In this document: piece after piece, positions 3,542-62,733 of the stretch
How positions within the stretch are numbered: the stretch's first letter is position 1
Layout of the letters: the number at the start of each line of letters is the position of its first letter
Origin: an uncultured Mycoplasmatota bacterium
GTDB lineage: Bacteria; Bacillota_I; Bacilli_A; RF39; UBA660
Length of the DNA: 62,733 nt
Assembly (NCBI GenBank): GCA_900549325.1
Contig: UROI01000003.1
Span: 1-62,733 of the forward strand
Direction of reading: 5' to 3'
Translations under genes and position numbers: made by a program
The notes under the pieces: model-generated
Database searches by the model: none
What the model saw: only the letters and a program-made list of their open reading frames with translations
Told to the model about the DNA's origin: nothing

Positions 3542-3596
3542 CATTATGAAGACCTTAGGCTTCATAATGCCCCGAAAGACTATAGGCTTAAGGGGG
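3542..3596 (+). repeat. Double-hairpin element, copy a
   Basis: cattatgaag-ACCTTAGG-cttcataatg (3542-3569), then ccccgaaag-ACTATAGG-cttaagggg (3570-3595, 2x2 internal mismatch). Both apices read AGAC..GGCT. Confidence 0.85.
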
Positions 3597-3644
3597 AGTG
3601 CAAAGAAAAAGAAAATATATTGTTATATACTTTCTATATGAATA

Positions 3645-5036
3645 TTATCCTACGATTAATATTTGACCTATATTTAATAGATTTGAACTAAGATTATTTA
3701 ATTCTTTTAGTCTATTTACTGTTGTGTTATACTTTTTAGCTATAGAATATAGAGAATCTCCTGATTTAACTGTATAAGTTGTTTCCCTTGAAGTACCTAG
3801 TGGTATTCTTAATACCTCTCCTATTTGGAGAGTATTGGTAGTAAGATTATTGGCTCTTTTGATGGCATCCACAGTTACATTATATTGATTTGCTATCTTG
3901 TACAAGGAGTCACCTGATTTAACGGTATAATCTACTGTATTTGATGATGGTGTTTCTGATGATGTGGTTGGTAGTTTTAAGACCTGACCTACGGATAAAA
4001 TGTTTGAAGTAAGGTTGTTTACTCTCTTTAGTTCATCTACTGTGGTATTATATTTTTGGGCTATTTTATATAAAGAATCTCCACTTTTTACTGTGTAAGT
4101 ATTTTCTGGAGTAAGAGGACTTGGCAGTTTTAGTGTCTGGCCTATTACGAGGTTATTCGATGTTAAATTATTTAATTTTTTTATTTCATCAACAGTGGTG
4201 TTATTATTTTGGGCTATCTTGTATAGTGAGTCACCACTTTTTACTGTATAAATATTAGTTTCCCCTTCATATACTTCTTTTGATGGTATTCTTAGGACCT
4301 CTCCTATCTGGAGAGTATTTGAGGTAAGGTTGTTTTCTTTTTTTAATTCTGAAACAGTGGTACCTAGTTTATTGGCAATGCTATATAATGAGTCGCCCTT
4401 TTGTACTATGTATGTATTGGTTATTAATCCTTCAGGTGGTGTGTATGGTACTCCTATATAGTTTGCTACTGCTGAAATGACGGCTTCTGCTAGTTCTTCA
4501 TAGTTTTCTTTTAGAAAGTTTACATCTTTGGCATTATCTATGAAGCCATATTCAACAATTAGTGGTTCTAGGTTGCCAGTATCTCTGTGGATGAAATAAT
4601 AGTCTTTGGAAGTGTTTGATGGTAGTCTTCTTTGATAGTATTTTCTTGTTTCTTGTCCTGCAGCCCCGATATTGCTCAGAATATTTTTGGCTAGGGTATC
4701 TTTGTTTCTTAGGGCGTATATGACTTCGGCTCCTTCGCCGCCTCCTGAATTAACATGGTTCGATATTAGGATGACATCGCTGGAATTGCCAAACTTACCC
4801 AAGATATTGCTTACTCTCTGTGATGGAGATAGTGTGGTATCTGAGTCTCTAGTTATAGCTACGGGAATGCCTAGGTCTTTAAATCTATCATACATATACT
4901 TTGATATTAATAGATTGTAGTCTTTTTCTAGCAAACCATTTCCTGTAGCTCCCGAATCCGATCCTCCGTGACCAGGATCAATTACTACTTTACGGACCTC
5001 TCTATATTCATTATTATTCATAGTTATCACCTTCAA
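3645..5036 (-). CDS. N-acetylmuramoyl-L-alanine amidase (Amidase_3) with five C-terminal LysM repeats
   Basis: VVIDPGHGGSDSGATGNG amidase_3 signature. Five repeats of the type YTVKSGDSLYKIAQKYNTTVDELKRVNNLTSN.L.(I/V)GQ.LK(L/I)P. Confidence 0.9.
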   Translation of the reverse strand: MKVITMNNNEYREVRKVVIDPGHGGSDSGATGNGLLEKDYNLLISKYMYDRFKDLGIPVAITRDSDTTLSPSQRVSNILGKFGNSSDVILISNHVNSGGGEGAEVIYALRNKDTLAKNILSNIGAAGQETRKYYQRRLPSNTSKDYYFIHRDTGNLEPLIVEYGFIDNAKDVNFLKENYEELAEAVISAVANYIGVPYTPPEGLITNTYIVQKGDSLYSIANKLGTTVSELKKENNLTSNTLQIGEVLRIPSKEVYEGETNIYTVKSGDSLYKIAQNNNTTVDEIKKLNNLTSNNLVIGQTLKLPSPLTPENTYTVKSGDSLYKIAQKYNTTVDELKRVNNLTSNILSVGQVLKLPTTSSETPSSNTVDYTVKSGDSLYKIANQYNVTVDAIKRANNLTTNTLQIGEVLRIPLGTSRETTYTVKSGDSLYSIAKKYNTTVNRLKELNNLSSNLLNIGQILIVG

Positions 5037-5081
5037 AGTAGTATATGTAAATAATGTTAATTTGGTTAACTTGACTAGAAG

Positions 5082-5105
5082 AAAAAGATACTATTTTTTA
5101 GTACC
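5082..5105 (-). terminator. Hairpin plus T-run after the UDG-family gene; degenerate copy of the 5846-5880 hairpin
   Basis: aaaaagatacta/ttttttagtacc. On the minus-strand RNA this reads GGUACU-loop-AGUAUC followed by UUUUU. Confidence 0.5.
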
Positions 5106-6723: not shown

Positions 6724-6813
6724 TGGCTTATAATATAATACAACACAAATATTTTTAATTTAGAGACTATATAATAGGCTCTAAATTGCCTCTTAAGACC
6801 TAGGCTTAAGAGG
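6724..6813 (+). repeat. Double-hairpin element, copy b (box plus two hairpins)
   Basis: Box ggcttataatataatac (6724-6741). aatttagag-ACTATATAATAGG-ctctaaatt (6757-6787). cctcttaag-ACCTAGG-cttaagagg (6789-6813). Confidence 0.9.
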
Positions 6814-6840: not shown

Positions 6841-7932
6841 TTAATCTACATTATTTACTTTTATAGTACTTACATACTTTATATTTAATATTTTATCATA
6901 TAGTAATTGCTTATTTTTTAATACTCTTATAAAACTATATATATAGAAAATTATAAATATTAAAAATGTATTTAATCCTATTATTACTGATAAATAGTTA
7001 GGTATATTTTTAGCTAATAACATTTCTAAATGTACCACTAATGAAAATATTCCATAGTAATATAAATAGATAAAGATATTTCTTAAAGTTAATCTAAGTA
7101 ATCTCTTATCTGGTACTTCTAATGATACATTTATTATTTTTCCAAAGATTGTTTGGTTATGGTTAAAATATGGAATGATAATAAAGTATAGGACCGCTAA
7201 TAAAAGATTTATATATTTATTATTTATTAAAATTGATACTAACATTATCATTAGTAGATAGATAAAGATATCTCCTATAAAGAGTGTTATTCTTCTTAAG
7301 GAAGATACTTTTTGTCCTTCTTTTAATGATTTGGTATCGATATCTTCTCTTGTTGGTAAATGTTTTTGGATAGGACTTATTATTAAATAGCCCAGAAGAC
7401 CTCCTAATGTGTTTATTAATAGGTCATCCACATCAAAATTACGATATGGTCTAGGATAGATATAATATAGTCCTGTTAACTGAGTTAATTCAAAGAATAG
7501 TGATATTAAGAAACTTATAATTATTGTTTTCTTTAATGAACATTTATAGTAATATTTTAAATATACTCCTAATGGCATAAACATTATTATATTAAAGATA
7601 ACAGTATATATACTAGGCATAGTTATTATTTTTAAGATATTTATTTGTTTTAATTCTATAAAGTCCTCTATTATATCTTTTGTGAATGTTAATGGGATTA
7701 ACTGAGGATTAATCACTTTCATTTTGATTACTTCTTCTTTGGTTGGAAGAGGTAATATTACTAAAAAGTAGATTGTCATTAGATATAAGATAAAGGAATA
7801 TATTATTAAAGTTCTTAATTTGTTTACTGATCCATAATGATGATATTCATATATTATATATGGTAATGTTATTAATAAAGCTAAAAAAGGAAAGATTATT
7901 AAAGCTGCTTTTATTGGTACTAAATAGCTCAT
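6841..7932 (-). CDS. VanZ-family membrane protein with extended multi-TM C-terminal region
   Basis: 363 aa, polytopic. VanZ-like FNIIMFMPLGVYL ... FFELTQL ... RNFDVDDLLINTLGGLLGY. Confidence 0.7.
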   Translation of the reverse strand: MSYLVPIKAALIIFPFLALLITLPYIIYEYHHYGSVNKLRTLIIYSFILYLMTIYFLVILPLPTKEEVIKMKVINPQLIPLTFTKDIIEDFIELKQINILKIITMPSIYTVIFNIIMFMPLGVYLKYYYKCSLKKTIIISFLISLFFELTQLTGLYYIYPRPYRNFDVDDLLINTLGGLLGYLIISPIQKHLPTREDIDTKSLKEGQKVSSLRRITLFIGDIFIYLLMIMLVSILINNKYINLLLAVLYFIIIPYFNHNQTIFGKIINVSLEVPDKRLLRLTLRNIFIYLYYYGIFSLVVHLEMLLAKNIPNYLSVIIGLNTFLIFIIFYIYSFIRVLKNKQLLYDKILNIKYVSTIKVNNVD

Positions 7933-7933: not shown

Positions 7934-9994
7934 TTATCTCTCCTTTATTATGTTTTTACTACAATAGTATGTTACTAAGAAATATCCTCCATAGATTACT
8001 ACTAGAAATACGGCGGTTAAAATTATTGATGATAATAATGATGATGTTCCTATTGTTTTTAAGATATAATTAGCAAATTTTATTCCAAATATGGAGTGAA
8101 TTATGGCAAGTAATAATGGAAATAAGAAGAATACTGCTATCTGATTAAATAAGGCTTTGTTTATCATCTTCTCATCGGTTCCTATTTTTCTTAACATATT
8201 AAATCTTTCTTTATTATCAGTACTTTCAGATAATTCTTTTAAGGCTAAGATGGCTGCACTTGATATTAAGAAAATTATTCCTAGATATAGTCCTACAAAT
8301 GTTACCATTGCTCCTAGTCCTATAGATGATGCATAGATATCTATTTTGGTATTATATGTTAGTAAGGTATCTTTGTTAAAATGATTATTCATTATAGTAT
8401 TAACCGTCTCTTCGATATCTTCTTTTTCTTCTTTGGTATCAGCTTGATAGTTGGCTGCTAAGATATTTTTATACGGATGAATACCTTCTAAGGCATTATC
8501 TGGTAATATTATTACTCCTGTATTAGTAGAACTTCCACTTAGTTCGATAAAACCATCTTGACATTCTTGATATTTTGGATAGTAGTTTTTACTATTTATA
8601 GTTAGTTTGGCATTATTTTTTAAAGCTATGTTTCGAATATCCGCCATCATCTTATAATTGGCTATAATTACATATTCATTATCTTTCAGAGTTAATTCTT
8701 TTTTGTTATATAGTTTTGCTAGACGATTGTAGTCACTTAATTTTATTAGTGTTTCTTTATCTTGATATGCTAGGAATGGATAATCTTTTTCTATTTGTTC
8801 TATTTGGTCTCCAAAAGAGTCTTTTAGGGTTATTTCTTCTACTCTATATGTATTTATATCTACTACATCTTTTAGATACTTATATACATCTAATCTTTGT
8901 AAGGTATCTTTGGCAGTGGTGTTATAGTCCTCTATTATGTCTTTGGAGAAACTTTCCTCTTCTTCATCTGATAATTGTTGTAATTTTGAGAACTGAATAT
9001 CAACGGGTGCTAAATCTTTTAGATTACCTGATAGGGAGTTCTTTATGGATAATGCTGATGAAAAGATACATATAGTAAAGAATAGCGTTAGGCATATAAT
9101 TGTCATTGAAAAGACTGTGGTATTTATTTTACTACTTATTTGACGAACGGTAAAACTATTTAGTCCTTTGTAGTAGTATTTTTTTAGATGCATTACTATC
9201 TTTAGGATTAGACCTGATAGTGACCAAAATATTAGAAATGTTGATACGCATCCTAAAGCTATAGGCAACAATATTCCTCTTATGGTATTCATTAGTGGTG
9301 AAGTACCAAATCCATCTGTTACTAGATAGTAAGCATATGATAGTGCTATGACAGCAATTATGAATACTATAGTGCAAATGATAGGATTTTTTAATTTTAC
9401 TTTTTCGGATTTTTTATTACCATGTAATAGGTCTATTAGTTTACATTTGTTTACAATTATGGTGTTAAATATCATTACTATTAGATACATTATGCTAAAG
9501 TATAATAAGGCTTTTAGGGCCGCTGAAGATGAAAATGTAAACTGAAATTTTGTTAAGTCAGCTTCAAACATATTGGCTACTAAGATACTCATTAGTTGTG
9601 ATAAAACTGTTCCTAGGGCTAGGCCTACTCCTAAAGAGATAACCCCTATTATAAGAGTTTCAAAGAAAAGGATTAGAGATATTTTTCTTTTGGGCATTCC
9701 TAGGGTTAAGTAGATTCCAAATTCTTTGTTTCTTCTTTTTATGAGAAAACGACTGGCATAGATTATTAGAAATCCTAGAATAAATGAGACAAAGACACTT
9801 ACTCCTCCTAGAATAGTGGTCATTAGTTCTATTGCTTCATACTTTGACGATGAGACATTTAGCATTACTGTTTGACTATCTATGGCATTGAAGACATAGA
9901 AAATGGCTACTCCTAGTACTAGGGTAAAGAAATAGATGGCATAATCTTTGATACTTTTGGTTATGTTTTTTAGTGACAATTTAAAGAGCATCAT
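7934..9994 (-). CDS. ABC transporter permease, FtsX-fold, BceB type (10 TM with large extracellular loop)
   Basis: 686 aa. The stretch at about aa 330-560 carries no TM segments and reads as a large loop between two FtsX-like halves. Start overlaps the ATPase gene stop by 14 nt. Sits in an RR-HK-ATPase-permease module. Confidence 0.85.
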   Translation of the reverse strand: MMLFKLSLKNITKSIKDYAIYFFTLVLGVAIFYVFNAIDSQTVMLNVSSSKYEAIELMTTILGGVSVFVSFILGFLIIYASRFLIKRRNKEFGIYLTLGMPKRKISLILFFETLIIGVISLGVGLALGTVLSQLMSILVANMFEADLTKFQFTFSSSAALKALLYFSIMYLIVMIFNTIIVNKCKLIDLLHGNKKSEKVKLKNPIICTIVFIIAVIALSYAYYLVTDGFGTSPLMNTIRGILLPIALGCVSTFLIFWSLSGLILKIVMHLKKYYYKGLNSFTVRQISSKINTTVFSMTIICLTLFFTICIFSSALSIKNSLSGNLKDLAPVDIQFSKLQQLSDEEEESFSKDIIEDYNTTAKDTLQRLDVYKYLKDVVDINTYRVEEITLKDSFGDQIEQIEKDYPFLAYQDKETLIKLSDYNRLAKLYNKKELTLKDNEYVIIANYKMMADIRNIALKNNAKLTINSKNYYPKYQECQDGFIELSGSSTNTGVIILPDNALEGIHPYKNILAANYQADTKEEKEDIEETVNTIMNNHFNKDTLLTYNTKIDIYASSIGLGAMVTFVGLYLGIIFLISSAAILALKELSESTDNKERFNMLRKIGTDEKMINKALFNQIAVFFLFPLLLAIIHSIFGIKFANYILKTIGTSSLLSSIILTAVFLVVIYGGYFLVTYYCSKNIIKER

Positions 9995-10748
9995 TTATGT
10001 CTCCTCCTAGTAAGGTTACGACATCTATTATTTTATCAAAGAATTCTTTTCTGGTATCATTTCCTTTACGAATTTCGTTATATATTTTACCATCTTTTAT
10101 GAAGATTATTCTAGTAGCGTAACTTGCGGCATAAGCGTCATGGGTTACCATTAAAATAGTGGCTCCTAAGGTATTATTTAAGTATGTTAGTTTTTCTAGA
10201 AGCATTTTTGATGACTTGGAATCTAGGGCTCCGGTTGGTTCGTCTGCGAGTACTAAGCATGGATTTGTTATTATGGCACGAGTTGCTGCTACTCTTTGTT
10301 TTTGTCCTCCACTCATTTGGTAAGGATATTTTTTTAGTACTGATTCGATATCTAGTTCTCTTGCTACTTTCTTTATTCTTTTATCTATTTCTTTGGGACT
10401 TACATTTTGAATTGATAAGGCTAGTGCTATATTTTCATAGGCTGTTAAGGTATCTAATAAATTGAAGTCTTGAAAGATGAAACCTAAGTCTTCTCTTCTA
10501 AACTTGTTTAAATCATTTCCTTTTAGTTTTGTTATGTCAGTTCCTCCTACAAAAATATGTCCGGCGGTTACTTTATCAATTGTAGATATACAGTTTAGTA
10601 ATGTTGTTTTACCTGAACCTGATGAACCCATGATAGCGACAAATTCTCCTTTTTCTACTTCAAATGATATGTTATCTATGGCTTTGGTTAAACTTGATTT
10701 ACTTCCGTAGTATTTTTCAATATTTTCTATTTTTAGTATATTTTCCAT
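9981..10748 (-). CDS. ABC transporter ATP-binding protein, BceA type
   Basis: Walker A GSSGSGKTT, signature MSGGQKQRVA, Walker B LVLADEPTGALD, H-loop VTHD. Confidence 0.9.
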   Translation of the reverse strand: MENILKIENIEKYYGSKSSLTKAIDNISFEVEKGEFVAIMGSSGSGKTTLLNCISTIDKVTAGHIFVGGTDITKLKGNDLNKFRREDLGFIFQDFNLLDTLTAYENIALALSIQNVSPKEIDKRIKKVARELDIESVLKKYPYQMSGGQKQRVAATRAIITNPCLVLADEPTGALDSKSSKMLLEKLTYLNNTLGATILMVTHDAYAASYATRIIFIKDGKIYNEIRKGNDTRKEFFDKIIDVVTLLGGDINDAL

Positions 10749-12715: not shown

Positions 12716-14050
12716 GTGATACATTTGAAAAAGTATGAACTTTTAACTAGTGACGATAATATATTTAACACAATTAACGATGACTGGTTAGGAAGAAACA
12801 GTAAGATAATTAATCTTATGAAATTATTAAATAATGTTAATGAAAACATTATAATATCAATTGATGGTGAATGGGGAACTGGTAAAACCTTTTTTATAAA
12901 ACAATTAATTTATATCTGCAATAATTACGATAAGATTGATAACATTAAAAATCATAAGGATTATGCTAAAGTGGAGGAGTTTTCAAAAAAGCATGTTGTA
13001 GTTTATTATAATGCTTGGGAAAACGATAATCATGATAATCCTTTAGAATCGCTAATTTATAATATTCTAAATGAATATCCTAAATATAAAAACCATATTG
13101 AAAATCCAGAAGAATTGTTTCAGGCGGTAAAGCCAATACTAAAAAATATTATTGAAAAAGGTAGTTTGGGATATATAACTAAAGACTGCTTTGAAAACTT
13201 AAAATCATTTGAAGATTTAGCTGATAGTATAGTTACAATCGAAGAAAAACAATCATCATTAAATAAGTTATTTAACAAAATAATTAAATCAGATCAAAGA
13301 GTATTATTAGTGGTTGATGAACTAGATAGATGCCGTCCAGATTATGCAGTAAAATCACTTGAAACATTAAAACATTTCTATAATAATTCTAAATTAAGCA
13401 TTATAGTTGTAACTAACAATAAACAATTGAGTCATACAATAAAAAAATATTATGGTAATGATTTTGATGGGTATAGTTATTTAGATAAAATCTATGATAG
13501 CATTATTACGCTTGGAATTGATAATTTAGATAATTATGTTAAAAAACATTGTAAGATTACACAGGCTACTAATTTACCAGAAAATATATCTTTTGAATTA
13601 TTTAAGTATTTAAATTTTTCATACAGAGAATGTAATAAATATATGTCAATGTACAGGATTGTTGAGCCATATACAAAAGTTAGAGACTCTTTTAATATGA
13701 ATAAGTTTTTATTTGAGGCAGACATTTTGTTACCAATGGCTTTAGCATTAAAAATTAAAAATATAAATAACTATAATAGTTTTGTTACTGGTATTGGCGA
13801 TGAAATAATAAAGTCATTTCTAGCATTTCTAAAAAATGATAATGATGAACTTGATTATATTAGATGGCTATCTGAACTTTTATCACCAAACGAAAATGAA
13901 ACTTTAGAAGAAACTTTTATTAGGAAATATAGATGTGTTTTTTCTAAGAGGACTAGCTATGATAATTTTCCATATCTTGAGGCCATTTCTATGCTAGGAA
14001 ATTCAATTAATTTTAATAATGATAATAGTCAATCAATAGGGATGGAATAA
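12716..14050 (+). CDS. KAP-family P-loop NTPase (soluble, no TM insert)
   Basis: IIISIDGEWGTGKTFF (Walker A), VVVYYNAWENDNHDNPLESLIY, LLVVDELDRCRPDYAVKSLETLKHF (Walker B plus KAP-typical DRC). The start may be TTG 12725 rather than GTG 12716. Confidence 0.8.
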   Translation: MIHLKKYELLTSDDNIFNTINDDWLGRNSKIINLMKLLNNVNENIIISIDGEWGTGKTFFIKQLIYICNNYDKIDNIKNHKDYAKVEEFSKKHVVVYYNAWENDNHDNPLESLIYNILNEYPKYKNHIENPEELFQAVKPILKNIIEKGSLGYITKDCFENLKSFEDLADSIVTIEEKQSSLNKLFNKIIKSDQRVLLVVDELDRCRPDYAVKSLETLKHFYNNSKLSIIVVTNNKQLSHTIKKYYGNDFDGYSYLDKIYDSIITLGIDNLDNYVKKHCKITQATNLPENISFELFKYLNFSYRECNKYMSMYRIVEPYTKVRDSFNMNKFLFEADILLPMALALKIKNINNYNSFVTGIGDEIIKSFLAFLKNDNDELDYIRWLSELLSPNENETLEETFIRKYRCVFSKRTSYDNFPYLEAISMLGNSINFNNDNSQSIGME

Positions 14051-14052
14051 TT

Positions 14053-19860: not shown

Positions 19861-21030
19861 TTATTGTGCTTCATTAAACAGTTTTTCAGCCATTGTTTTA
19901 ATTACATCAACATTCACAGCATTTCCAAATTGTTTGTATGCTTGTTGATCATTCTTATTTGGAATAAATGTGTCAGGAAAACTCTGAAGTCTAGCTGCTT
20001 CTCTAACTGTTAGTCTTCTTTTATACTTACCTATTATTGGAATTTGTACCATTGCTACTAACGCAGGAAAGCATGTTGGTTTTTTAACCCTAATACCTGA
20101 CGGTCTAAATTGTATTATCCCATCCCATAACGATTTTATGCTATTACCAGCTTGCCATTCTAATTTTCTATGTGTTGGAGCAAATTCTTTTAAATAATTA
20201 TATTTTTCCATCCATCTATCTATAAACTCTTTATTATTGTTATATAAATTAATATTCTTATTTATGAAATCCTCTTTCCATTTTGGCAATTTTTCATCTT
20301 TAAAATATCCATTAAAATATACTGCCCATATTGGGAAACCAATAACTGTTTCTTTAATTCCTTTATAAAATTCATCCCACGCTGTTAAAACCATTTTTTC
20401 ATAATCTGAAATATAGTATTTATTTGACACTTTCTTTGTTTCTAGCACGGTTGAAATATCATTTTCTTCTTTTGACATCAATTCTGGCAGTTTTATATTT
20501 AAATCTTTATCAGCATTTTCTGGATCATATATACCCAAAATTACAACTCTTTCCCTTAATTGCGGGATACCTAATTGATGTGGGCTAATAATAATAGGTT
20601 CTTTTGTCAAACGATAGCCAATTTCTTTCAAATGTGAATAAATTGTATTCCATGTCTTTTTATTGTCATGTGATACTAAGTTTCTTACATTTTCTAAAAC
20701 TATATACTTTGTCTTATGATATTTTAAAATTCTCTCTATTTCAAAAAATAGCGTTCCTTTAGTTTCATCGTTGAATCCTAACTGTTTTCCAGCTTTAGAA
20801 AATGTTTGGCATGGGAAGCCAGCGCATAGAACGTCATGTTTGGGTATATCTTTCTCATCTATATCCCTAATATTGCAATCAGAATTAATACCATAGTTTT
20901 CATAATATGTTTCTATTGCATACTTATCAATTTCAGATGCAAATACACAATTTCCACCTAATTGTTCCATTGCCTGATGAAAGCCACCTATTCCAGCAAA
21001 TAAATCTATAAACTTAAAGTCCTTTTTCAT
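19861..21030 (-). CDS. dcm: DNA (cytosine-5)-methyltransferase
   Basis: Motif I FIDLFAGIGGF, motif IV GFPCQTFS, motif VI LENVRNL, motif VIII QLRERV, motif X QFGNAV. Confidence 0.92.
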   Translation of the reverse strand: MKKDFKFIDLFAGIGGFHQAMEQLGGNCVFASEIDKYAIETYYENYGINSDCNIRDIDEKDIPKHDVLCAGFPCQTFSKAGKQLGFNDETKGTLFFEIERILKYHKTKYIVLENVRNLVSHDNKKTWNTIYSHLKEIGYRLTKEPIIISPHQLGIPQLRERVVILGIYDPENADKDLNIKLPELMSKEENDISTVLETKKVSNKYYISDYEKMVLTAWDEFYKGIKETVIGFPIWAVYFNGYFKDEKLPKWKEDFINKNINLYNNNKEFIDRWMEKYNYLKEFAPTHRKLEWQAGNSIKSLWDGIIQFRPSGIRVKKPTCFPALVAMVQIPIIGKYKRRLTVREAARLQSFPDTFIPNKNDQQAYKQFGNAVNVDVIKTMAEKLFNEAQ

Positions 21031-24665: not shown

Positions 24666-24787
24666 ATACTAAAATAATATTAGTGTATATATCTATAGCT
24701 TATATATAATAGATGCAATAAGCATATTGTTATTAGACCTAGGCTAATAACAACACTAATAAGACTTACATAGTAAGGCTTATAGTG
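24666..24787 (+). repeat. Double-hairpin element, copy c (long form)
   Basis: Left arm atactaaaataatattagtgtatatatctata plus box GCTTATATATAATAGA (24698-24713). tgttattag-ACCTAGG-ctaataaca (24728-24752). cactaataag-ACTTACATAGTAAGG-cttatagtg (24754-24787). Confidence 0.9.
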
Positions 24788-29117: not shown

Positions 29118-29245
29118 TATACTAAAATAATATTAGTATATACCTACTGCTTATATATAATAAGTATCTTGGATACTTTTAATTAAGATAAGTTTACTTA
29201 GCTTAATTAAACACTAATAAGACTTACATAGTAAGGCTTATAGTG
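29118..29245 (+). repeat. Double-hairpin element, copy d (long form, paralogue of copy c)
   Basis: The left arm tatactaaaataatattagtatatacctactGCTTATATATAATAAG and the right hairpin cactaataag-ACTTACATAGTAAGG-cttatagtg (29212-29245) are near-identical to copy c. The central hairpin differs (ttaattaag...cttaattaa). Confidence 0.9.
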
Positions 29246-33151: not shown

Positions 33152-34432
33152 CTATCTTGTTTTACCGTACCCATTATTTATGGTTTTTTCCTTCAAGGTT
33201 TCACGCACTTTATTAAATTTAGATACAGAAGAATAGATTCTATAGTAATACACTTTTAACTCTGTTATATTTTGTATGCTTAAACTTTCTCCACCTTCTT
33301 CTAGAATCTTTTCTATCATTCTTAATTGTTCTTTTGCAGAAAAAATACAACATAGTTCTAGTTTTGAGTTATTTGTTTTTTTCTCTCTAATTTCTTTAGT
33401 CGTTCCCTTAGCTTGTTTAAAAATGCTTCTTATATTGTAGACATCTCCAATTCCATTTGTAATATCGTTAGTTGATTGTAATGTTTCTGGTTTATATAGC
33501 CTCTTCGCATTATCAGAATTAAAGAAGCCCATTTGAGCATAATTATCTCTTCCACATTTCTTTGATAGTCTATTTAATAAAAAGGTATCTGCTTTCCAAT
33601 TATTGTTTGCTTTAGGTCTAGCGTTTGTGCAAATTGCGGATATTTCACTTAGTATACCAAAATTTTGAAATAAGAAATTTTTATATTTTATTTTTTCATA
33701 GTTAAAAATAGGATTCTCTTTTTGTATCCTAGTTATTACTTCTAATGGTGTTTCGCCATTTATTTTTTCTCCATCATTCATTAACATCTGTAATATTTTA
33801 AAAATAGTTATGTTTCTTTCTTTTAATATATGTTCTAAATTTCTTTTTTCTATTCCTAAAAGATGGCAAATATTTTCTTCATATATCTCAAAATTATATG
33901 TTGATTTTCCAGCTTTTAAAGAAGTTAACTTATTTCTATAGTTTTCTACAAATATATAATAAGAGTATCGTATCCATTTTGATATTTCTTCCATATCTTC
34001 GTTTGAACAAACTTTCGGTGGGAGAAAAGCTTTCTCTTTTTCTGCTAGTGAAATATCTTTTATTTTACCTTCTTCTTTTTCAATTATATATTTTTCTCCC
34101 GTGTCATATATAAGCCTTTCTAGAATATCATACTCCTTATCTATTTGTTCTATTTTTTTTCGTATTTTTTCTATGTCTTCATCAGCAGAAGTTTCTTCCA
34201 ATTTGTTTAATTCATATAAATAATAGCTTCCATAGTCCGCTAAAAAATTTAATATGGTATCTATGCTATACATATCTTCTATTGTGCTTTCTTGCTCTCC
34301 GCAATATTTTAATATTAGTTCTTCTTTTGTCTTTCCTGTAATCTTGCTAAAATCTTTGAAATAACTTTCAAATTTTTCTTGTAAGTACGCTGCATATTCT
34401 CTTCTACTTGATAATCTCATTTTCGCCTCCAT
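33152..34432 (-). CDS. Hypothetical protein (426 aa), possible nuclease-like centre
   Basis: No firm motif. ENICHLLGIEKRNLEHIL faintly recalls barnase/EndoU-like (PBECR) modules. Flanked by 26-bp direct repeats. Confidence 0.55.
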   Translation of the reverse strand: MEAKMRLSSRREYAAYLQEKFESYFKDFSKITGKTKEELILKYCGEQESTIEDMYSIDTILNFLADYGSYYLYELNKLEETSADEDIEKIRKKIEQIDKEYDILERLIYDTGEKYIIEKEEGKIKDISLAEKEKAFLPPKVCSNEDMEEISKWIRYSYYIFVENYRNKLTSLKAGKSTYNFEIYEENICHLLGIEKRNLEHILKERNITIFKILQMLMNDGEKINGETPLEVITRIQKENPIFNYEKIKYKNFLFQNFGILSEISAICTNARPKANNNWKADTFLLNRLSKKCGRDNYAQMGFFNSDNAKRLYKPETLQSTNDITNGIGDVYNIRSIFKQAKGTTKEIREKKTNNSKLELCCIFSAKEQLRMIEKILEEGGESLSIQNITELKVYYYRIYSSVSKFNKVRETLKEKTINNGYGKTR

Positions 34433-34524: not shown

Positions 34525-34620
34525 AAAAAACTATAGACATAAATCTATAGCTTATATAAATATTTTAATTTTAGAGACTACAGGCTCTAAAATTCTTTTG
34601 AAGGCCCTAGGCTTCAAAAG
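34525..34620 (+). repeat. Double-hairpin element, copy e
   Basis: aaaaaactatagacataaatctatag (34525-34550), box-like gcttatataaatat, aattttagag-ACTACAGG-ctctaaaatt (34567-34594), cttttgaag-GCCCTAGG-cttcaaaag (34595-34620). Confidence 0.9.
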
Positions 34621-34650
34621 TAAGTGAGAAACCTTGGGTTCGAACTTTTA

Positions 34651-37988: not shown

Positions 37989-38044
37989 ATATTATATATT
38001 ATTTTTGATACTTATACAAGTAATTTTGTTTATTTTTTTATTAT

Positions 38045-38133
38045 TTAGGTATATATAACTGGCTTATATATGATAGATTTTATTTTTAGACTATAGGCTA
38101 AAAATAACACTCTAAGACTACAGGCTTAGAGTG
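38045..38133 (+). repeat. Double-hairpin element, copy f
   Basis: Box GGCTTATATATGATAGA (38061-38077). ttatttttag-ACTATAGG-ctaaaaataa (38080-38107). cactctaag-ACTACAGG-cttagagtg (38108-38133). Confidence 0.9.
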
Positions 38134-38143: not shown

Positions 38144-38527
38144 TTAATTATATTTTATTTCTTTTATATATGGTTTAGCGGATATTAAACCCATCTTTGG
38201 TATTATAGTTATTGTTACTTCTTTTTTATCTTCAGATAACTCTATATTTTCAATTACATCTTTTTCAGTACTTATTATTTTTATTTCATGCATACTTAAA
38301 GTACTACTGGTAGTTAATGATGAATTATTAGATAATGTACCTAGCTTAGTATCATCTATGTATACATCAAATGGTATAGCAAAACCTAACATTTTCTTTT
38401 CTCTTACTATAGTTATCTTTCCAATATTATTTTCATTATTTAATGGAGTTTCTTTACCACAATGAGGACAGAATTTGGCTCCTAAATCTAATTTACATCC
38501 ACAATTTAAACATATCATATTAAACAC
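38144..38527 (-). CDS. Zinc-ribbon protein with beta-rich C-terminal domain
   Basis: 127 aa. CLNCGCKLDLGAKFCPHCG. Confidence 0.55.
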   Translation of the reverse strand: MFNMICLNCGCKLDLGAKFCPHCGKETPLNNENNIGKITIVREKKMLGFAIPFDVYIDDTKLGTLSNNSSLTTSSTLSMHEIKIISTEKDVIENIELSEDKKEVTITIIPKMGLISAKPYIKEIKYN

Positions 38528-38630: not shown

Positions 38631-40394
38631 ATGTTAGGGAAGATTATTGCTATTAATGAAAATGTTGTATCTGTTAAATTAGAAGTTAATGTCTATGATT
38701 TTGATGGTTTAATAGGTAAGAATGTTACTTTTAAAGATGAAAATATTACTAGTATTGGAGAAGTTACTGCTATTGGTAATGGTATTATGCAGGCTATTTT
38801 GGTTGGTGAAATTAAAGATGGTAAATTTTTATATGGAGATATTTCTAAGCCTTCCTTTAAGGCTATATGTTATTTGATTGATAATGCTACTTTGGATATT
38901 GTTCTAAATAGTGATGCTGCTAATACTATTAAACTTGGTAAATCTTATATATATCCTGATTATGATATTAAACTTGATGTTGGTAATTTCTTTTCTAATC
39001 ATTTTGCTATACTAGGTAATTCTGGTAGTGGTAAATCTTATTTGGTTGCTAAGATACTACAGGGAATCTTCTATCAGTGTAAGACTCTTCCGTTTTATTC
39101 TAATATTTTCTTATTTGATGCTTATGGTGAATATCAAAGAGCCTTCTCGAGAATACACGAGGTTAATGAAAATATTAATTATAAAGTATATACTACAGAT
39201 TTAAATAGTACGGAGTTTGAAATACTTACTTATCCTTTTTGGCTTTTAGGAGTAGATGATTTATGTTTACTTATGGGTGTTACTTCTAGAGAACAGATTC
39301 CAATAGTAGAAAAGACTTTGAAGTTAGTTAGTTATTTTTCTAGAGATGAAAATGAAGTTATTAATCAGAAGAATGATATTATTGCTAGATGTTTACTTGA
39401 TATATTGTTTTCTGGTAAGGCTCCTAGTATGATAAGAAATAAAGTTGTATCTATTCTTACTAAGTTTAGTACTAGTAATTTGAATCTTGAGGTTAAACTT
39501 GAAAAAGGTGGATGGGCTAGAACTATAAGACAATGTTTATTTGTAGAACAAGGTGGAGAGTTTGCGGATGTTGAACTTGTTATTGAGTATTTAGAGAGTT
39601 TATGTCTAGATAACTTTGAACTTTCTTTACCTAATGGTGAATTTATGTATTCTATGAAAGATTTTAGTACAGCTTTAGAGTTTGCTCTTATATCTGAGGG
39701 GGCTCTTAATAGTGATACTGCCTTTGAACTTGGTAATGCTCTTAAAGTTAGATTTAATAATCTTATGAATAGTGATTATTCTAGATATTTTGATTATAAT
39801 GGTTATATTAATAGAGAGGGATATATTAATTTACTTCTTACTTGTAATAATGGTAGAAAGGCACAGATTGTTAACTTTAATATTAATTATGTTGATGATA
39901 GATTTGCTAAAAACTTAGTTAAGATTTATTCTAAACTTTTGTTTGATTATATTGTATCTTTAAATCAAAGAGCTACGATGCCATTTCATATTGTACTTGA
40001 AGAGGCTCATAGATATGTACAGAATGATAGTGATGTTATGATTCTTGGTTATAATATATTTGAGAGAATTACTAAAGAAGGTAGAAAGTATGGTTTACTA
40101 CTTGGAATTGTTTCACAGAGGCCTTCTGAATTATCAGAAACTACGATATCACAGTGTAGTAATTTCTTAGTATTTAAGATGTTCCATCCTAGAGATTTGC
40201 AGTTTATTAAAGATATTATTTCTAGTGCTGATGTTACTTTAACTAATAAGATTAAGACATTACATCCTGGTACTTGTATTATGTTTGGTACTGCTTTTAA
40301 ACTTCCTACGATTGCTATACTTGATAAACCTAATCCTGAACCTCTTAGTCAAAACTGTGATATTAATAAGACTTGGTATCTTAATAATAATTAA
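38631..40394 (+). CDS. HerA-like / DUF87 ASCE ATPase
   Basis: 587 aa. N-terminal HAS-barrel-like MLGKIIAINENVVSVKLEV. Walker A AILGNSGSGKSY, Walker B PFHIVLEEAHRY, RKYGLLLGIVSQRPSEL. Confidence 0.7.
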   Translation: MLGKIIAINENVVSVKLEVNVYDFDGLIGKNVTFKDENITSIGEVTAIGNGIMQAILVGEIKDGKFLYGDISKPSFKAICYLIDNATLDIVLNSDAANTIKLGKSYIYPDYDIKLDVGNFFSNHFAILGNSGSGKSYLVAKILQGIFYQCKTLPFYSNIFLFDAYGEYQRAFSRIHEVNENINYKVYTTDLNSTEFEILTYPFWLLGVDDLCLLMGVTSREQIPIVEKTLKLVSYFSRDENEVINQKNDIIARCLLDILFSGKAPSMIRNKVVSILTKFSTSNLNLEVKLEKGGWARTIRQCLFVEQGGEFADVELVIEYLESLCLDNFELSLPNGEFMYSMKDFSTALEFALISEGALNSDTAFELGNALKVRFNNLMNSDYSRYFDYNGYINREGYINLLLTCNNGRKAQIVNFNINYVDDRFAKNLVKIYSKLLFDYIVSLNQRATMPFHIVLEEAHRYVQNDSDVMILGYNIFERITKEGRKYGLLLGIVSQRPSELSETTISQCSNFLVFKMFHPRDLQFIKDIISSADVTLTNKIKTLHPGTCIMFGTAFKLPTIAILDKPNPEPLSQNCDINKTWYLNNN

Positions 40395-40444: not shown

Positions 40445-40499
40445 CCTCAGAAGCCTAAGGTCTTCTTGAGGCAAATTGGAGCCTGTAGTCTCCAATTTG
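40445..40499 (-). repeat. Double-hairpin element, copy g (reverse orientation)
   Basis: cctcagaag-CCTAAGGT-cttcttgagg (40445-40471, 1-nt bulge). caaattggag-CCTGTAGT-ctccaatttg (40472-40499). Confidence 0.9.
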
Positions 40500-40581: not shown

Positions 40582-40699
40582 GCTCTTTTTCCTATTTTTT
40601 TGTCTTTAACTGGTAACTTTTTGTCACCAATTCTTTTTTGACTTTTTTATTTTTAACTTATACTTTTTTCTCCTATAACATTCATTATTAAACTTTTTT

Positions 40700-40754
40700 T
40701 ATTTTAAAGACTACAGGCTTTAAAATACTTTTTGAAGACCTTAGGCTTCAAAAA
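40700..40754 (+). repeat. Double-hairpin element, copy h
   Basis: tattttaaag-ACTACAGG-ctttaaaata (40700-40727). tttttgaag-ACCTTAGG-cttcaaaaa (40729-40754). Confidence 0.9.
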
Positions 40755-40798: not shown

Positions 40799-43615
<2,817 letters not shown>

Positions 43616-48208: not shown

Positions 48209-48369
48209 GATTATTATACTTTATTTTAAACTAAAAATAAAGATATTGAGGACTTAAATTGATTTTTTAACGGAAATTACACTTATAAATGTTTAAAATT
48301 GTATTTAATTATACTTAGGCTTAAGTAGTATAATATAATAAAAAGCATAAACTTTATTAGGAGGTTTTT

Positions 48370-58373: not shown

Positions 58374-58456
58374 CACTTCAAGTCTAGGTCTTGAAGTGTT
58401 GTTGTTAGCCTGTAGTCTAACAACAATATACCAGTGGTATCTATTATATATAAGCC
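58374..58456 (-). repeat. Double-hairpin element, copy i (reverse orientation, with box)
   Basis: cacttcaag-TCTAGGT-cttgaagtg (58374-58398). tgttgttag-CCTGTAGT-ctaacaaca (58400-58425). Box complement TCTATTATATATAAGCC (58440-58456). Confidence 0.9.
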
Positions 58457-58500
58457 AGTAATTATATACTTTTATTTTGGCAATTATTTTATAAATTATT

Positions 58501-58555
58501 ATTTTTGAGACTACAGGCTCAAAAATATTTTCTAATGACCTTAGGCATTAGAAAA
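58501..58555 (+). repeat. Double-hairpin element, copy j
   Basis: atttttgag-ACTACAGG-ctcaaaaat (58501-58526). attttctaatg-ACCTTAGG-cattagaaaa (58527-58555). In the second hairpin the usual AG/CT closing pairs are replaced by TG/CA, a compensated change. Confidence 0.9.
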
Positions 58556-60470: not shown

Positions 60471-60482
60471 AGTAACTCCTTT

Positions 60483-62564
60483 TTATATTTTCTTGATATT
60501 TGGATGACCCTTCATTAGTTTTCTTATTCCTGTTGGATGCGGAAAGGCTACGGTTAGGATTGATTTATCTACTCCTATTACGACACCTTCACCAAAATCA
60601 GTATGAATAATATGTTCTCCTACTGTGTATTCGGCATTTTTATCAATTTTTTTCTTGATATTTGATATCATCTTAGTAAGTGGTTTTATTCCTTCTACTT
60701 CAATATATTCTTTATCTATTTCATTTATAAATCTACTTGGCATATTTCTACTGGTATTTCCAAATAACATACGAGTATCAGCAGATGTTATATAGAGTTT
60801 TTTCTTGGCTCTGGTAATGGCTACATAGCATAGTCTACGCTCTTCTTCAATAGCGGAATTACTTCCATCATTGATAGCATTATAATGTGGGAATATTCCT
60901 TCTTCCATGCCAACGATAAAGACATAATCAAACTCTAGTCCTTTTACAGAGTGGACAGTCATTAAACTTACTCTTCCATCACTGTCTTGATGTTCGGTTA
61001 TATCACTAACTAAGGAGATTTCTTCGAGAAAATCCTCTAGACTTGCTGAGCCATATTCTTCTTCATAACTCTTGGTAACTCCTTTAAACTCGTTTAAGTT
61101 TTCTAGTCTTATTTCATCTTCGAGTAATTTAGAACTTTCTAATTCTTTTCTTATACCACTTTTATCTAGAATATCATCGACTAATTCAGTAAGTGACATT
61201 TTTTCACTATCTTTAGTTAGTTCTTCAATTAGTTCTTTAAAAGTTAATTCTTTACCTGTTGTAATGGCTTCATAGATAGAAATACCGGCATCTTCTGCTA
61301 ATGAGGTTAAGTTATCAATTGTTTTTTCACCAATTCCTCTTTTTGGAGTATTGATTATTCTAAGCAGACTTACATCATCTTTATGATTATTTATTAATCT
61401 TAGATAACATAATAAGTCTTTTATTTCTTTTCTATTATAGAAATAGAAACTTCCTACCACTCTATATTTGATATTCTTTTTTAGTAATTCTTCTTCGATA
61501 GTTCTTGACTGAGCATTGGTACGATATAAGACCGCTATATCTTCTTCTTTAACACCTTTTGATATTAAATCTTTTATTTCTCCTACGACAAAGGAAGCCT
61601 CTTCTTTTTCGGTTGATACTTTTTTATATTTTATTTTATCTCCTTCTTCGTTATTACTCCATAGATTTTTATCTTTTCTTTCTCTATTATTTTTTATAAC
61701 GCTATTAGCGGCATTTAAGATGTTTTTAGTAGAACGATAGTTTTCTTCAAGTAATATTGTTTTGGCTTCGGGATAGTCTTTTTCAAAGTTTAAGATATTT
61801 TTATAATTGGCTCCACGAAAAGCATATATGGCTTGGTCATTATCTCCTACTACAAAGATATTACGATATTTAGATGATAGTAGTCTACTGAAGGTATATT
61901 GGGCTTCATTTGTATCCTGATATTCATCTATTAATATATATTTATATCTTTCTTGATAGTCATTTAAGACATTTGGATAGTTTTTAAATAGTTTTATTGG
62001 TAATATTAATAAATCGTCAAAGTCTACAGAATTTCCTTGTTTTAACTTTTTTTGATATGTTTTATATACTTCTACTACTTTATGGTCAAATTCTATTTTA
62101 GAGAATTTTTCTACATCCATCATTTCGTTTTTAGCAGAACTTATTTTATTCTTTATTTCTCTAGGATTATAGTATTCTTTACTCATATTTAGGTCTTTCA
62201 TTATTTTTTTGATAATAGTTAAGACATCATCACTATCTATGATAGTAAAGTTTCTTTCATAGCCTAATAGGCTATAGTTTTCTTTTAGTATTCTAAGTCC
62301 TAAAGAGTGAAATGTTGATATTTGTATATTATTAGCAGTACTTCCTATCAGAGATACTACTCTATCTTTCATTTCTTTAGCGGCTTTATTAGTAAAGGTT
62401 ATTGCTAATATGTTATATGGACTTATTCCATTTTCTATTAAATTTGCTATTCTACTAGTTAGTACTTTGGTCTTTCCAGAACCTGCTCCTGCAAGTACTA
62501 ACATTGGTCCATTTATATGATTAACAGCTTCTTGCTGATTCTTATTTAATTCTAAAACTTTCAT
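60483..62564 (-). CDS. pcrA: ATP-dependent DNA helicase PcrA/UvrD
   Basis: LAGAGSGKTKVLT, LIDEYQDTN, VGDNDQAIYAFRGA, YRS, TVHSVKGLEFD, CYVAITRAKKKL. Confidence 0.93.
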   Translation of the reverse strand: MKVLELNKNQQEAVNHINGPMLVLAGAGSGKTKVLTSRIANLIENGISPYNILAITFTNKAAKEMKDRVVSLIGSTANNIQISTFHSLGLRILKENYSLLGYERNFTIIDSDDVLTIIKKIMKDLNMSKEYYNPREIKNKISSAKNEMMDVEKFSKIEFDHKVVEVYKTYQKKLKQGNSVDFDDLLILPIKLFKNYPNVLNDYQERYKYILIDEYQDTNEAQYTFSRLLSSKYRNIFVVGDNDQAIYAFRGANYKNILNFEKDYPEAKTILLEENYRSTKNILNAANSVIKNNRERKDKNLWSNNEEGDKIKYKKVSTEKEEASFVVGEIKDLISKGVKEEDIAVLYRTNAQSRTIEEELLKKNIKYRVVGSFYFYNRKEIKDLLCYLRLINNHKDDVSLLRIINTPKRGIGEKTIDNLTSLAEDAGISIYEAITTGKELTFKELIEELTKDSEKMSLTELVDDILDKSGIRKELESSKLLEDEIRLENLNEFKGVTKSYEEEYGSASLEDFLEEISLVSDITEHQDSDGRVSLMTVHSVKGLEFDYVFIVGMEEGIFPHYNAINDGSNSAIEEERRLCYVAITRAKKKLYITSADTRMLFGNTSRNMPSRFINEIDKEYIEVEGIKPLTKMISNIKKKIDKNAEYTVGEHIIHTDFGEGVVIGVDKSILTVAFPHPTGIRKLMKGHPNIKKI

Positions 62565-62651
62565 CTTGTCTACCTCATCTTTCTTTACTTCATTTTATCA
62601 TATTTTGATAATATAGTGAAGTAAAGATAAGCATATTTTTTTATTTTATTC

Positions 62652-62733
62652 GCACTATAGCCTAGGTCTATAGTGTGTCATTTATAGCCTGTAGTCTATA
62701 AATGATATATCTACATATCTATTATATATAAGC
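62652..62733 (-). repeat. Double-hairpin element, copy k (reverse orientation, runs into the window edge)
   Basis: gcactatag-CCTAGGT-ctatagtg (62652-62675). tcatttatag-CCTGTAGT-ctataaatga (62678-62705). Box complement TCTATTATATATAAGC (62718-62733). Confidence 0.9.

Follow-up and report, generated by a model that had tools for sequence, protein, structure and literature searches.

Pneumococcal BOX and RUP elements and the Correia elements of Neisseria are abundant, modular intergenic repeats that fold and can carry terminator or promoter activity. They are defined by their full-length primary sequence and, in the case of RUP and Correia elements, by inverted terminal repeats. The repetitive extragenic palindromic (REP) sequences of Enterobacteria and Pseudomonas, together with the BIME and REPIN arrangements, represent another group of short (20-40 bp), high-copy, imperfect palindromes. 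They are mobilized by RAYT, an HUH Y1 transposase encoded by a single-copy gene that REPs often flank. They lie after genes, between co-directional or convergent but rarely divergent neighbors, and occasionally behave like terminators. To our knowledge, nearly all studies of REP-type repeats concern Proteobacteria, and we know of no work on genome-structuring repeats in the uncultured, small-genome, low-GC Bacilli of the gut. Here, we analyze a contig from such an organism (UROI01000003.1, 62,733 nucleotides; hereafter "the window"), which contains an abundant and well-defined counterpart of REPs, namely intergenic units of tandem hairpins with a shared, mismatched apex. These units had been noticed in a sequence-only reading of the window, and our analysis confirms that the observation is real. 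Related loci from other assemblies are referred to by L numbers (L002 to L123).

Each unit consists of two, sometimes three, adjacent hairpins of 9-11 bp that are arranged in direct orientation on one strand. What they have in common is the helix motif 5'-AGAC/GGCT-3', comprising an A-T pair, a G-C pair, an A.G mismatch or bulged A, and a C-G pair, which is closed by a loop of 3-5 nt or, in long-loop forms, by a further small helix. The bulged-A alternative, with the C paired to the first G, is the structure drawn by ViennaRNA for B hairpins. Hairpin A comes first and has a TACA or TATA (TAYA) loop, whereas hairpin B, which follows after 0-1 nt, has a CTTA, CTA, CTAA, CTGA or CTTG loop. At many loci, there is a third hairpin, C, whose near-constant stem (aGTGAG...CGAACt) contains tandem G.A/A.G mismatches. 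A T-arm-like sequence in hairpin C (GGTTCGAA) is regarded as a coincidence, as ARAGORN detected no tRNA and most C hairpins read GGCTCGAA. A long form of the unit, represented by 22 copies across the loci, additionally includes an upstream segment of the type AGTATATA-N6-8-GCTTATATATAATAGA, the second part of which we call the box, and a mini-hairpin of 4-6 bp (H0), whose stem covaries (ATAT/ATAT, ATACC/GGTAT, ATGC/GCAT, GTATC/GATAC). The B hairpins of long-form units always start with CACT and end with AGTG. In contrast to BOX, RUP and Correia elements, the family is thus defined by 8 nt per hairpin and an optional box.

The hairpins clearly exceed chance expectation. AGAC-N3-4-GGCT occurs 15 times on the two strands of the window, compared with 0.63 +/- 0.80 occurrences in dinucleotide-shuffled sequences, none of which (0 of 100) reached this number, so that the excess of copies over a shuffled control holds. 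At least six of seven flanking positions form Watson-Crick pairs in 13 of the 15 matches. Three more exact apices have long loops (6764, N9; 24762 and 29220, both N11), giving the 18 exact apices that had been counted before. The other apices are variants that differ by one or two bases. Among them, AGGC..GGCT (34602) and AGAC..GACT (58382, minus strand) stand beside three compensated ones: AGAT..AGCT (29186), AAAC..GGTT (34629) and TGAC..GGCA (58536), the last being the flipped TG...CA closing pair already described for one copy ("copy j"). A covariance model built from 150 AGAC-N4-GGCT occurrences, which were not filtered for pairing, recovered 23 hairpins, all at the 11 sites named previously, which score ~37 bits in the element orientation and ~17 bits in reverse; it gave no other convincing match in the 62.7 kb. 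While the sites and their occurrence in both orientations (plus and minus sites in the window) stand, the original total of two hairpins per site, 22 altogether, missed a third hairpin at 34622-34647. The earlier estimate of about one site per 6 kb compares with ~1 site per 5.7 kb here, and the expected abundance is supported by a density of 0.27 hairpins/kb across 1.29 Mb of related contigs.

The stems are highly diverse in sequence and yet remain complementary. In the unfiltered 150-occurrence alignment, 89.2% of the cells are paired (61.9% when shuffled), and 483 cells have changed on both sides, compared with 162 in shuffles. The corresponding covariation score (0.669 versus 0.162) was reached in none of 500 shuffles and dropped to 0.10-0.21 when the partners were slid against each other. 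A set of 155 unique hairpins, comprising 1085 stem pairs, contains 87 distinct 7-nt arms, with AGAC/GGCT as the only invariant part; 1025 of the pairs are Watson-Crick. When arms differ at two positions, both differences fall within the same base pair in 43 of 68 hairpin pairs (7.7% expected by chance, p = 5e-31); one-position differences are found in just 32 hairpin pairs. Single compensated pairs also distinguish paralogs from the same genome (L009 versus L020, L033 versus L043), as exemplified by ttAttttt/aaaaaTaa in L009 and ttCttttt/aaaaaGaa in L020.

The exceptions to pairing are biased toward one strand. On the AGAC...GGCT strand, purine.purine mismatches greatly outnumber pyrimidine.pyrimidine mismatches (33 versus 5, p = 4e-6), and G.T is more frequent than A.C (17 versus 5). 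Because strand-symmetric mutation cannot generate such a bias, these numbers point to selection on the fold of one particular strand. The AGAC...GGCT strand is therefore the structurally constrained, folding strand, with stems that need only pair. Moreover, the A.G mismatch itself is under selection: 468 of 605 occurrences of AGAC..GGCT are part of a hairpin, as opposed to only four of 94 for the "repaired" version AGAC..GTCT and none of 28 for AGCC..GGCT. Among 8-18 strains of the window's species, segregating sites make up 3.0% of the stem, 4.2% of the apex, 13.9% of the loop and 8.8% of the flanking spacer positions. As stems and apex are about threefold less polymorphic than the flanks (Fisher's p = 0.011) and the loops are not, the resident copies are constrained, the letters of their loops are not, and purifying selection keeps the copies paired. 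The constancy previously ascribed to the whole apex thus applies to the helix motif, which is invariant, but not to the loops, which vary like spacer within populations. By contrast, the suggestion that selection acts on a folded single strand or a protein-recognized hairpin is supported by the compensated changes, the retained A.G mismatch and the low polymorphism of stems and apex.

In certain respects, these patterns resemble those expected for functionless DNA palindromes that are perfected by intrastrand template switching (quasi-palindrome correction) and keep their apex by descent. Pairs are almost always Watson-Crick, wobble intermediates accounting for only ~1.6%, and compensations by transversion are as frequent as those by transition (23 versus 20), both of which is unlike ordinary RNA covariation; in addition, the self-complementarity of most loops leaves no more than a minimal loop unpaired (CTATAG, CCTAGG, CCTNAGG). 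However, correction would erase the A.G mismatch, whereas its perfectly paired derivatives almost never occur in hairpins. The strand bias of the mismatches, the reduced polymorphism of stems and apex relative to the flanks, and the preservation of the A-then-B order and the loop types even at 63% GC also speak against this explanation, which is already disfavored and appears highly improbable. The CTAG-type cores of the loops had been considered unusual because CTAG is usually avoided in bacteria, an assumption that does not apply to this genome (233 observed versus 145-203 expected).

In Escherichia coli REPs, mismatched residues at the edge of the loop are needed for cleavage by RAYT, and short and long self-complementary loops coexist (PMC3733652). 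A conserved near-loop mismatch, which would matter for recognition, and a mixture of loop lengths recur in the hairpins described here. We favor, if tentatively and with slightly less than even confidence, the reading that the units constitute a REP-like, structure-defined, non-autonomous family of intergenic elements whose mismatched apex is read by a protein. A trans-acting protein would recognize the mismatched apex of the folded single strand, and this protein would either have copied whole units to new sites itself or have assisted in the process, with a transposase of the HUH/Y1 type being the obvious candidate. The units may then settle in a safe zone after terminators and be retained there partly by selection. 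A similar logic is known from the ends of IS200/IS605 elements, which, like their deletion derivatives, the palindrome-associated miniature inverted-repeat transposable elements (MITEs), carry two similar but non-identical subterminal hairpins on one strand and are recognized as single-stranded DNA (ssDNA) through their shape and an unpaired base rather than through the sequence of their stems. Since only eight nucleotides and one mismatch are fixed per hairpin, the recognition determinant should be easier to define than in classical REPs, and the hairpin itself could be used as an oligonucleotide probe in the search for its protein partner. If this partner turned out to be a new ssDNA enzyme or RNA-binding protein, the family would represent its natural substrate library.

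Despite working like REPs, the family fails several of their defining features. It lacks the GTAG/CGTC foot tag, GTAG being seen solely where a TACA loop is read in reverse complement; its hypervariable stems do not form a cloud around one master sequence; and its hairpins, with their distinct A and B loops, are direct tandems instead of inverted doublets. Further differences are the AT-rich box and mini-hairpin of some units and the low-GC Bacilli that serve as hosts. The proposal that the elements are REP/BIME-like in concept and not yet described as a family withstood all searches. No match to Rfam 15 was obtained at gathering level at any hairpin site, and permissive settings (E<=5-10, short slices) yielded only noise far below threshold, which argues against a known RNA family. 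Similarly, blastn searches against plasmids and phages returned no match, and the pattern formed by the two apices of a unit was not detected in viral contigs, leading us to reject a phage or plasmid origin. Literature searches with the apex 12-mers retrieved only unrelated primers, and none of the papers found on REPs, stem-loops and RF39 describes the family. It is hence uncatalogued.

The placement of the units relative to genes was determined for 36 dereplicated sites from ~12 genomes and their distance to stop codons for 47 distinct units. Gene 3' ends adjoin 35 of the 36 sites. Antisense units between co-directional genes are the most frequent class (19/36), followed by sense units between co-directional genes and units between convergent genes (8/36 each), with a single unit located between divergent genes (1/36). 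Core genes such as uvrA, metK, polC and rnc are also flanked by units. In 33 of 47 units, it is the B side that points toward a stop codon, the median distance being 30 nt, and 13 of these 33 units begin within 16 nt of it. Intrinsic terminators are often located between stop codon and unit (for instance at 40399-40440 and 40756-40783), and an A-run found 6-11 nt past hairpin B corresponds to their T-tract. GC skew and gene direction mostly assign the folded strand, which is C/T-rich and antisense to the largely co-oriented genes, to the leading-strand template; in the window, this applies to 8 of 11 sites.

These positions would be compatible with a cis-acting RNA element that has a host function, resides in 3' untranslated regions or antisense read-through transcripts and acts as a terminator, a 3'-end stabilizer or a protein- or RNase-binding site with a bulged-A apex, possibly comparable to the bulged-A hairpins read by phage coat proteins. 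The 13 units that begin within 16 nt of a stop codon must, for this reason, be co-transcribed with the upstream gene. The reverse complement of hairpin B (B') followed by the T-rich arm of A is terminator-like in three scans of the window, and 14 of 47 units (~30%) have five or more T among the 8 nt that follow B'. Purifying selection on resident copies and the tolerance of G.T wobble over A.C on the folded strand fit an RNA as well. Both strands fold into tandem hairpins, with the element strand being more stable by 0.8-2.8 kcal/mol as DNA (4/4 cases) and more stable as RNA in 3/4 cases, and the tandem hairpins fold well as RNA (z-scores of -2.4 to -5.8). However, the constrained strand is antisense to the genes at 19 of 27 co-directional sites, so that the mRNAs mostly carry its complement, with C.U and other pyrimidine.pyrimidine mismatches. 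Genuine terminators often already precede the element, most units lack a U-tract, half of the compensations are of the transversion type, wobble pairs are scarce, and no Rfam family corresponds to the hairpins. We therefore regard a cis-acting RNA as a possible but rather doubtful explanation. The strand recognized would more likely be ssDNA than RNA, given that about two thirds of the units flanked by co-directional genes have the antisense orientation, that wobble intermediates are scarce and that the self-complementarity of the loops extends to the smallest possible loop. For the REP-like element favored above, the terminator-like combination of B' and the T-rich A arm in ~30% of the units may help to explain why copies are tolerated or retained after genes.

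The long form of the unit raises the additional question of whether it is a multicopy small-RNA gene. In this scenario, the box would provide a -10 element (TATAAT), and the RNA would be initiated near H0, include both A and B and be terminated by the bidirectional terminator that belongs to the convergent gene upstream. Indeed, a perfect TATAAT is part of the box, which precedes H0-A-B by a constant distance in 22 units; covariation is seen in H0 as well as in A and B; and the usual antisense orientation directs the unit at the terminator of the upstream gene, as at site 7 on the minus strand, which is followed by the 40399-40440 hairpin and TTTTTAT. On the other hand, there is no -35-like hexamer at a distance of 16-18 nt, with the conserved upstream AGTATA being unlike TTGACA, and a promoter scan did not pick up the boxes, so that we do not regard them as sigma-70 promoters. 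In other genomes, the majority of units, including the GC-rich one of L022, are devoid of the box, one unit (L123) has lost box and H0 but kept A and B, and hairpin B is not followed by a U-tract. A small-RNA gene is therefore quite unlikely and represents a weaker alternative than a host RNA function. The box was previously reported to precede seven copies, which is correct if variants are included: it is exact at 24698(+), 58440(-) and 62718(-), has one mismatch at 38062 and two at 29149, and is looser at 6726 and 34551. It invariably lies 5' of hairpin A. As the 16-mer is not enriched by itself in the window when up to three mismatches are allowed (7 versus 7.06 expected), its significance rests on the exact copies and the fixed position in 22 units rather than on its frequency.

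A search of 185,579 species genomes for an exact 22-nt two-apex pattern identified 43 loci, nearly all of them in ~12 related metagenome-assembled genomes (MAGs) from the gut, which are labeled Bacilli, Tenericutes or Firmicutes CAG and include Clostridium sp. CAG:302 and its relatives. The window itself shares 95.6-96% identity with Clostridium sp. CAG:302 scaffolds and with a MAG labeled "uncultured Bacilli". A few of the remaining loci are evidently mis-binned contigs. L002, binned as Oribacterium sp., is 94% identical to window positions 7937-10272 but without the VanZ-like gene 6841..7932, and L004, binned as Paludibacteraceae, carries a typical AT-rich unit; both look like mis-binned contigs of a CAG:302-type organism. 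The element thus serves as a simple sequence marker for the clade, which has exposed mis-binned contigs in public MAGs.

The exception is L022 (CAZCUX010000015.1), which belongs to an "Enterobacterales" MAG with 63% G+C. Its A and B hairpins (AGACTACAGGCT and AGACCTTGGGCT) have GC-rich stems, but they are ordered and spaced as in the other units and again follow a gene and a small hairpin, and the unit (1975-2031) is antisense to both of its neighbors. It is the single unit in the 8 kb examined and not a product of chance, because both apices are flanked by seven to eight perfect pairs. The same contig contains two adjacent perfect hairpins with unrelated apices within a long open reading frame (ORF) (1340-1396; atgcattggt...accaatgcat and ccttggtgttg...caacaccaagg). 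It is conceivable, though unlikely, that the hairpins are substrates of an undescribed, structure-specific ssDNA enzyme and thus constitute a new hairpin transposon or attC-like site in Gram-positive gut bacteria. Such an enzyme would read only an 8-nt mismatched helix motif and tolerate any stem, and the stems might be regenerated by hairpin-templated copying. The system would have to be old or mobile enough to span phyla, as suggested by the GC-rich copy in L022, and could drive the gain and loss of genes beside the elements.

The turnover of the units becomes apparent in the spacer after a HerA-like gene, which was compared over 80 related metagenome loci; a HerA-like protein 99% identical to that of the window is encoded on human-gut metagenome contigs. 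In the distant loci L068 and L111, this spacer consists of a bare bidirectional terminator without any element. L110 has one plus-strand unit, and L113 has a minus/plus head-to-head pair. The two members of the pair are separated by 200 nt in the window, ~360 nt in L115 and whole genes in L077 and L086, and the stems of head-to-head units are unrelated to each other. Even at the same site, the stems are wholly different between lineages whose HerA-like proteins are 85-87% and 99% identical. At positions 48259-48336, the window contains only a decayed hairpin remnant, which was not on the earlier list and has lost the 5' half of its apex (48305..48335, plus strand; tatacttaGGCTtaagtagta), whereas an intact double hairpin is present in L046 (HerA-like protein 99% identical). 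Conversely, subfamilies with shared stems (ttattttt plus cactcta, ttgttgtt plus cactctat) recur at several unrelated loci of one genome. Together, these comparisons show that a given intergenic position may gain, lose, exchange or invert its copies from one lineage to another. The earlier dismissal of a MITE is too strong, as the family, with its gains, losses, flips and shared-stem subfamilies, does behave like a mobile repeat. The recurrence of whole units with identical stems at unrelated loci also excludes a model in which only the apex inserts into pre-existing terminator loops.

Two loci carry deletions within units. In L067, ~60-95 nt past the HerA-like stop codon, the 5' arm of B' is joined to the apex and 3' arm of A', resulting in a non-pairing chimera; this deletion is the product of recombination or slippage between the two 12-nt apices. 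In L123 (2855-2888), when compared with L071, L104 and L044, a 35-nt deletion has removed the box and H0 but left B (cactagcaAGACAAATGGCTtgcagtg) and A (ttatttggAGACCAACTAGACTccaaataa) intact.

Several observations weigh against a REP-like mobile element. We found no clean filled-versus-empty pair between close strains, the sole match being the 35-nt deletion of L123, and empty spacers are confined to lineages whose HerA-like protein is only 84-87% identical to that of the window. Neither target-site duplications, inverted terminal repeats nor a sharp target motif were seen on inspection of the unit ends, which are placed only approximately because no close relative has an empty site. In the first two respects, the units may resemble IS200/IS605 elements. 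However, these elements have a sharp 4-5-nt target or cleavage motif that abuts their left end, whereas the flanks of the stems reach at most 0.64 bit, with a weak AAAATTTT preference 5' of hairpin A. No Y1 transposase was detected either: tblastn searches with three queries, RAYT and the TnpA proteins of IS200 and IS608, had no match in 1.64 Mb of highly redundant DNA that includes no whole genome, a negative result of little weight. Moreover, units of only ~55-110 nt differ from IS200/IS605, and their folded strand, for the most part the leading-strand template, contrasts with the lagging-strand preference of IS608 and ISDra2. The diversity of the stems is far above that of an active REPIN or MITE population, and a host function would account for the low polymorphism of resident copies at least as well as selfish spread.

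Genes of 1.2-1.6 kb that vary between strains are present or absent exactly at the 5' (box) side of units, flanked by imperfect direct repeats of 30-50 bp. Examples, all drawn from element-bearing spacers, are found at 33127-33162/34531-34562, 37990-38060 and 48240-48340 and in L024. Gene 33152..34432 is missing from L044, L050 and L055, two different cargos are located upstream of site 38045, and a cargo is present at 48259 in L051, L057, L060 and L063. The elements appear to flag spacers near terminators in which gene gain and loss between strains is concentrated. In L020 (5650-6852), an ISAs1-like DDE transposase begins ~45 nt past the box of a full-length unit after the RNase III gene. Nothing similar is found at the other end of the transposase region, so that we reject the box as an end of this insertion element and regard the proximity of box and transposase as probably a coincidence.

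The variable genes bring up the question of whether the units are structure-specific recombination sites, promoting an attC-like flux of cassettes, or cruciform or double-stranded DNA sites bound at the ends of operons by gyrase or nucleoid proteins, a role suggested for BIMEs. Integron attC sites are likewise recognized by structure, with little sequence conservation, gain polarity from an unpaired base and vary in apical length. Chromosomal attC arrays keep their folding strand on the leading-strand template. The asymmetric unpaired base, variable apical structure and leading-strand bias of the units may therefore be reminiscent of chromosomal attC, and the apex-to-apex deletion in L067 and the direct repeats beside the variable genes (33127/34531, 38000-38060, 48240-48340, L024) would also fit such a role. 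However, attC sites have conserved R''/R' cores (RYYYAAC/GTTRRRY) at the base of the stem, which are missing from the variable stem bases of the units, whose conserved motif is found at the apex. Instead of forming a cassette array, the units lie scattered, in either orientation and also beside core genes (uvrA, metK, polC, rnc). The cargo segments bring no hairpin unit with them, the duplicated segments resemble promoter regions of the downstream gene, and the association with variable genes is drawn solely from element-bearing sites. Finally, no integrase (IntI) or other recombinase gene was found among the roughly three-fifths of window ORFs that were scanned. Recombination or protein-bound cruciform sites are thus decidedly unlikely.

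The double-hairpin and repetitive hairpin elements of fungal and sponge mitochondria are also small, fold-defined intergenic modules that are inferred to be mobile without a known enzyme, but they are organellar and form GC-rich hairpins with conserved stems in AT-rich DNA (PMC2800124), and a relationship in sequence would not be expected. An organellar or plastid origin and an identity with these elements are ruled out for the present family, as the window is bacterial, with an S-adenosylmethionine (SAM) riboswitch, metK, uvrA and LysM/spore-type proteins.

Within the window, site 1 lies on the plus strand and consists of a B-type hairpin (3542..3569; cattatgaAGACCTTAGGCTtcataatg; 36.4 bits) and a second hairpin with purine-purine mismatches in its stem (3570..3596; ccccgaaAGACTATAGGCTtaagggg; 20.6 bits). 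Site 2, also on the plus strand, starts with a loose variant of the box (6726..6741; gcttataatataatac), which is canonical in the L002 ortholog, and continues with hairpin A, containing a 9-nt loop (6757..6787; aatttagAGACtatataataGGCTctaaatt), and hairpin B (6789..6813; cctcttaAGACCTAGGCTtaagagg). At site 3 (plus strand), the region 24666..24725 comprises the conserved upstream segment ATACTAAAATAATATTAGTGTATATA, the exact box GCTTATATATAATAGA (24698-24713) and the mini-hairpin H0 atgcAATAAgcat. It is followed by a first hairpin (24727..24753; ttgttattAGACCTAGGCTaataacaa) and a second one of the long-loop form with an extra apical helix (24754..24787; cactaataAGACttacatagtaaGGCTtatagtg). Site 4 (plus strand) is organized similarly, with the conserved upstream segment, a box with two mismatches (29149-29164) and H0 gtatcTTGgatac within 29118..29176. 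Its hairpins are both of the long-loop type: in A (29178..29211), a compensated change has turned the inner C-G pair into T-A (AGAT..AGCT) while the A.G mismatch is kept, and B (29212..29245) is identical in sequence to the 24754 hairpin. The two long-loop units at 24666 and 29118 flank a region of defense-type genes.

Site 5 (plus strand) begins with a small hairpin (ctatagaCATAAAtctatag) and a box-like sequence (cttatataaata) at 34531..34562, a diverged copy of which is found at 33127-33162, beyond a strain-variable gene. Hairpin A (34567..34594) shows a compensated change from G-C to A-T in the L024 ortholog, hairpin B (34595..34620; AGGCCCTAGGCT) has a variant apex, and the third hairpin (34622..34647; aagtGAgAAACCTTGGGTTcGAactt) is of the C type, with tandem G.A/A.G mismatches and a G-C to A-T change in an apex pair. 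Site 6 (plus strand) contains the upstream segment TTAGGTATATA and a box with one mismatch (38062-38077) in the interval 38040..38077, followed by hairpins A (38080..38107; ttatttttAGACTATAGGCTaaaaataa) and B (38108..38133; cactctaAGACTACAGGCTtagagtg), the latter ending 10 nt from the stop codon of gene 38144..38527(-). The reverse complement of this hairpin B, together with TTATTTTT, is terminator-like in the scan.

Sites 7 and 8 are arranged head-to-head. Site 7, on the minus strand, has its hairpin B (40445..40471; cctcaagaAGACCTTAGGCTtctgagg) directly after the intrinsic terminator of gene 38631..40394(+), and its hairpin A is located at 40472..40499 (caaattggAGACTACAGGCTccaatttg). Site 8, on the plus strand, contains hairpin A (40700..40727; 39.3 bits) and hairpin B (40729..40754), which abuts the terminator hairpin (40756-40783) of uvrA, 40799..43615(-). 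The 200-nt non-coding stretch between the two units (40500-40699) is ~95% conserved in related strains, has no convincing ORF and holds the hairpins tagtcacaaattgtgacta (40563-40581) and ggtgacaaaaagttacc; in other lineages, it is replaced by 34 nt, ~360 nt or whole genes.

Another head-to-head pair is formed by sites 9 and 10. Site 9 (minus strand) comprises hairpin B with a variant apex (58374..58398; AGACCTAGACT), hairpin A (58399..58426; ttgttgttAGACTACAGGCTaacaacaa) and the region 58427..58475, which includes H0 ataccaCTggtat, the exact box (58440-58455) and the upstream segment AAAGTATATA. Site 10 (plus strand) consists of hairpin A (58500..58527) and hairpin B with the compensated closing pair (58528..58555; TGACCTTAGGCA; 25 bits). 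Site 11, again on the minus strand, has hairpin B at 62653..62675 (cactatAGACCTAGGCTatagtg) and hairpin A at 62678..62705, preceded on this strand by H0 atatGTAGatat and an exact box (62718-62733), which occupy positions 62706..62733 and end at the edge of the window.

The host DNA has a G+C content of 25%. Most of its genes are on the minus strand, and both the GC skew and the AT skew of the plus strand are negative. Apart from the genes already mentioned, it encodes a two-component system, an ATP-binding cassette (ABC) transporter, LysM/amidase proteins and several defense-type genes, with the SAM riboswitch lying 5' of metK. A protein exactly identical to its UvrA is not on record, probably owing to the choice of start codon. 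The defense-type cluster comprises a KAP NTPase with an ApeA-like protein (12716-15450), a C-5 cytosine methylase with MTaX1 (19861-22444) and a large superfamily 1 (SF1) helicase (24809-27469) that has only weak ProA/Hhe-like matches. Two sub-threshold matches to the Clostridioides difficile "sRNA inside helicase gene" family n00280 (33-35 bits, compared with a gathering threshold of 65) are found at 1233-1333 (-) and 60776-60876 (-), within ORFs 1166..3445, a UvrD/helicase-IV-like gene, and 60483..62564, respectively. A variable, defense-rich stretch of the window, finally, contains a DUF3800-I RNA (RF02969; 61.6 bits) at 31518-31642 (+), which is located beside a MqsA/helix-turn-helix/SocA-Panacea antitoxin-like gene at 31665-32642 (-).

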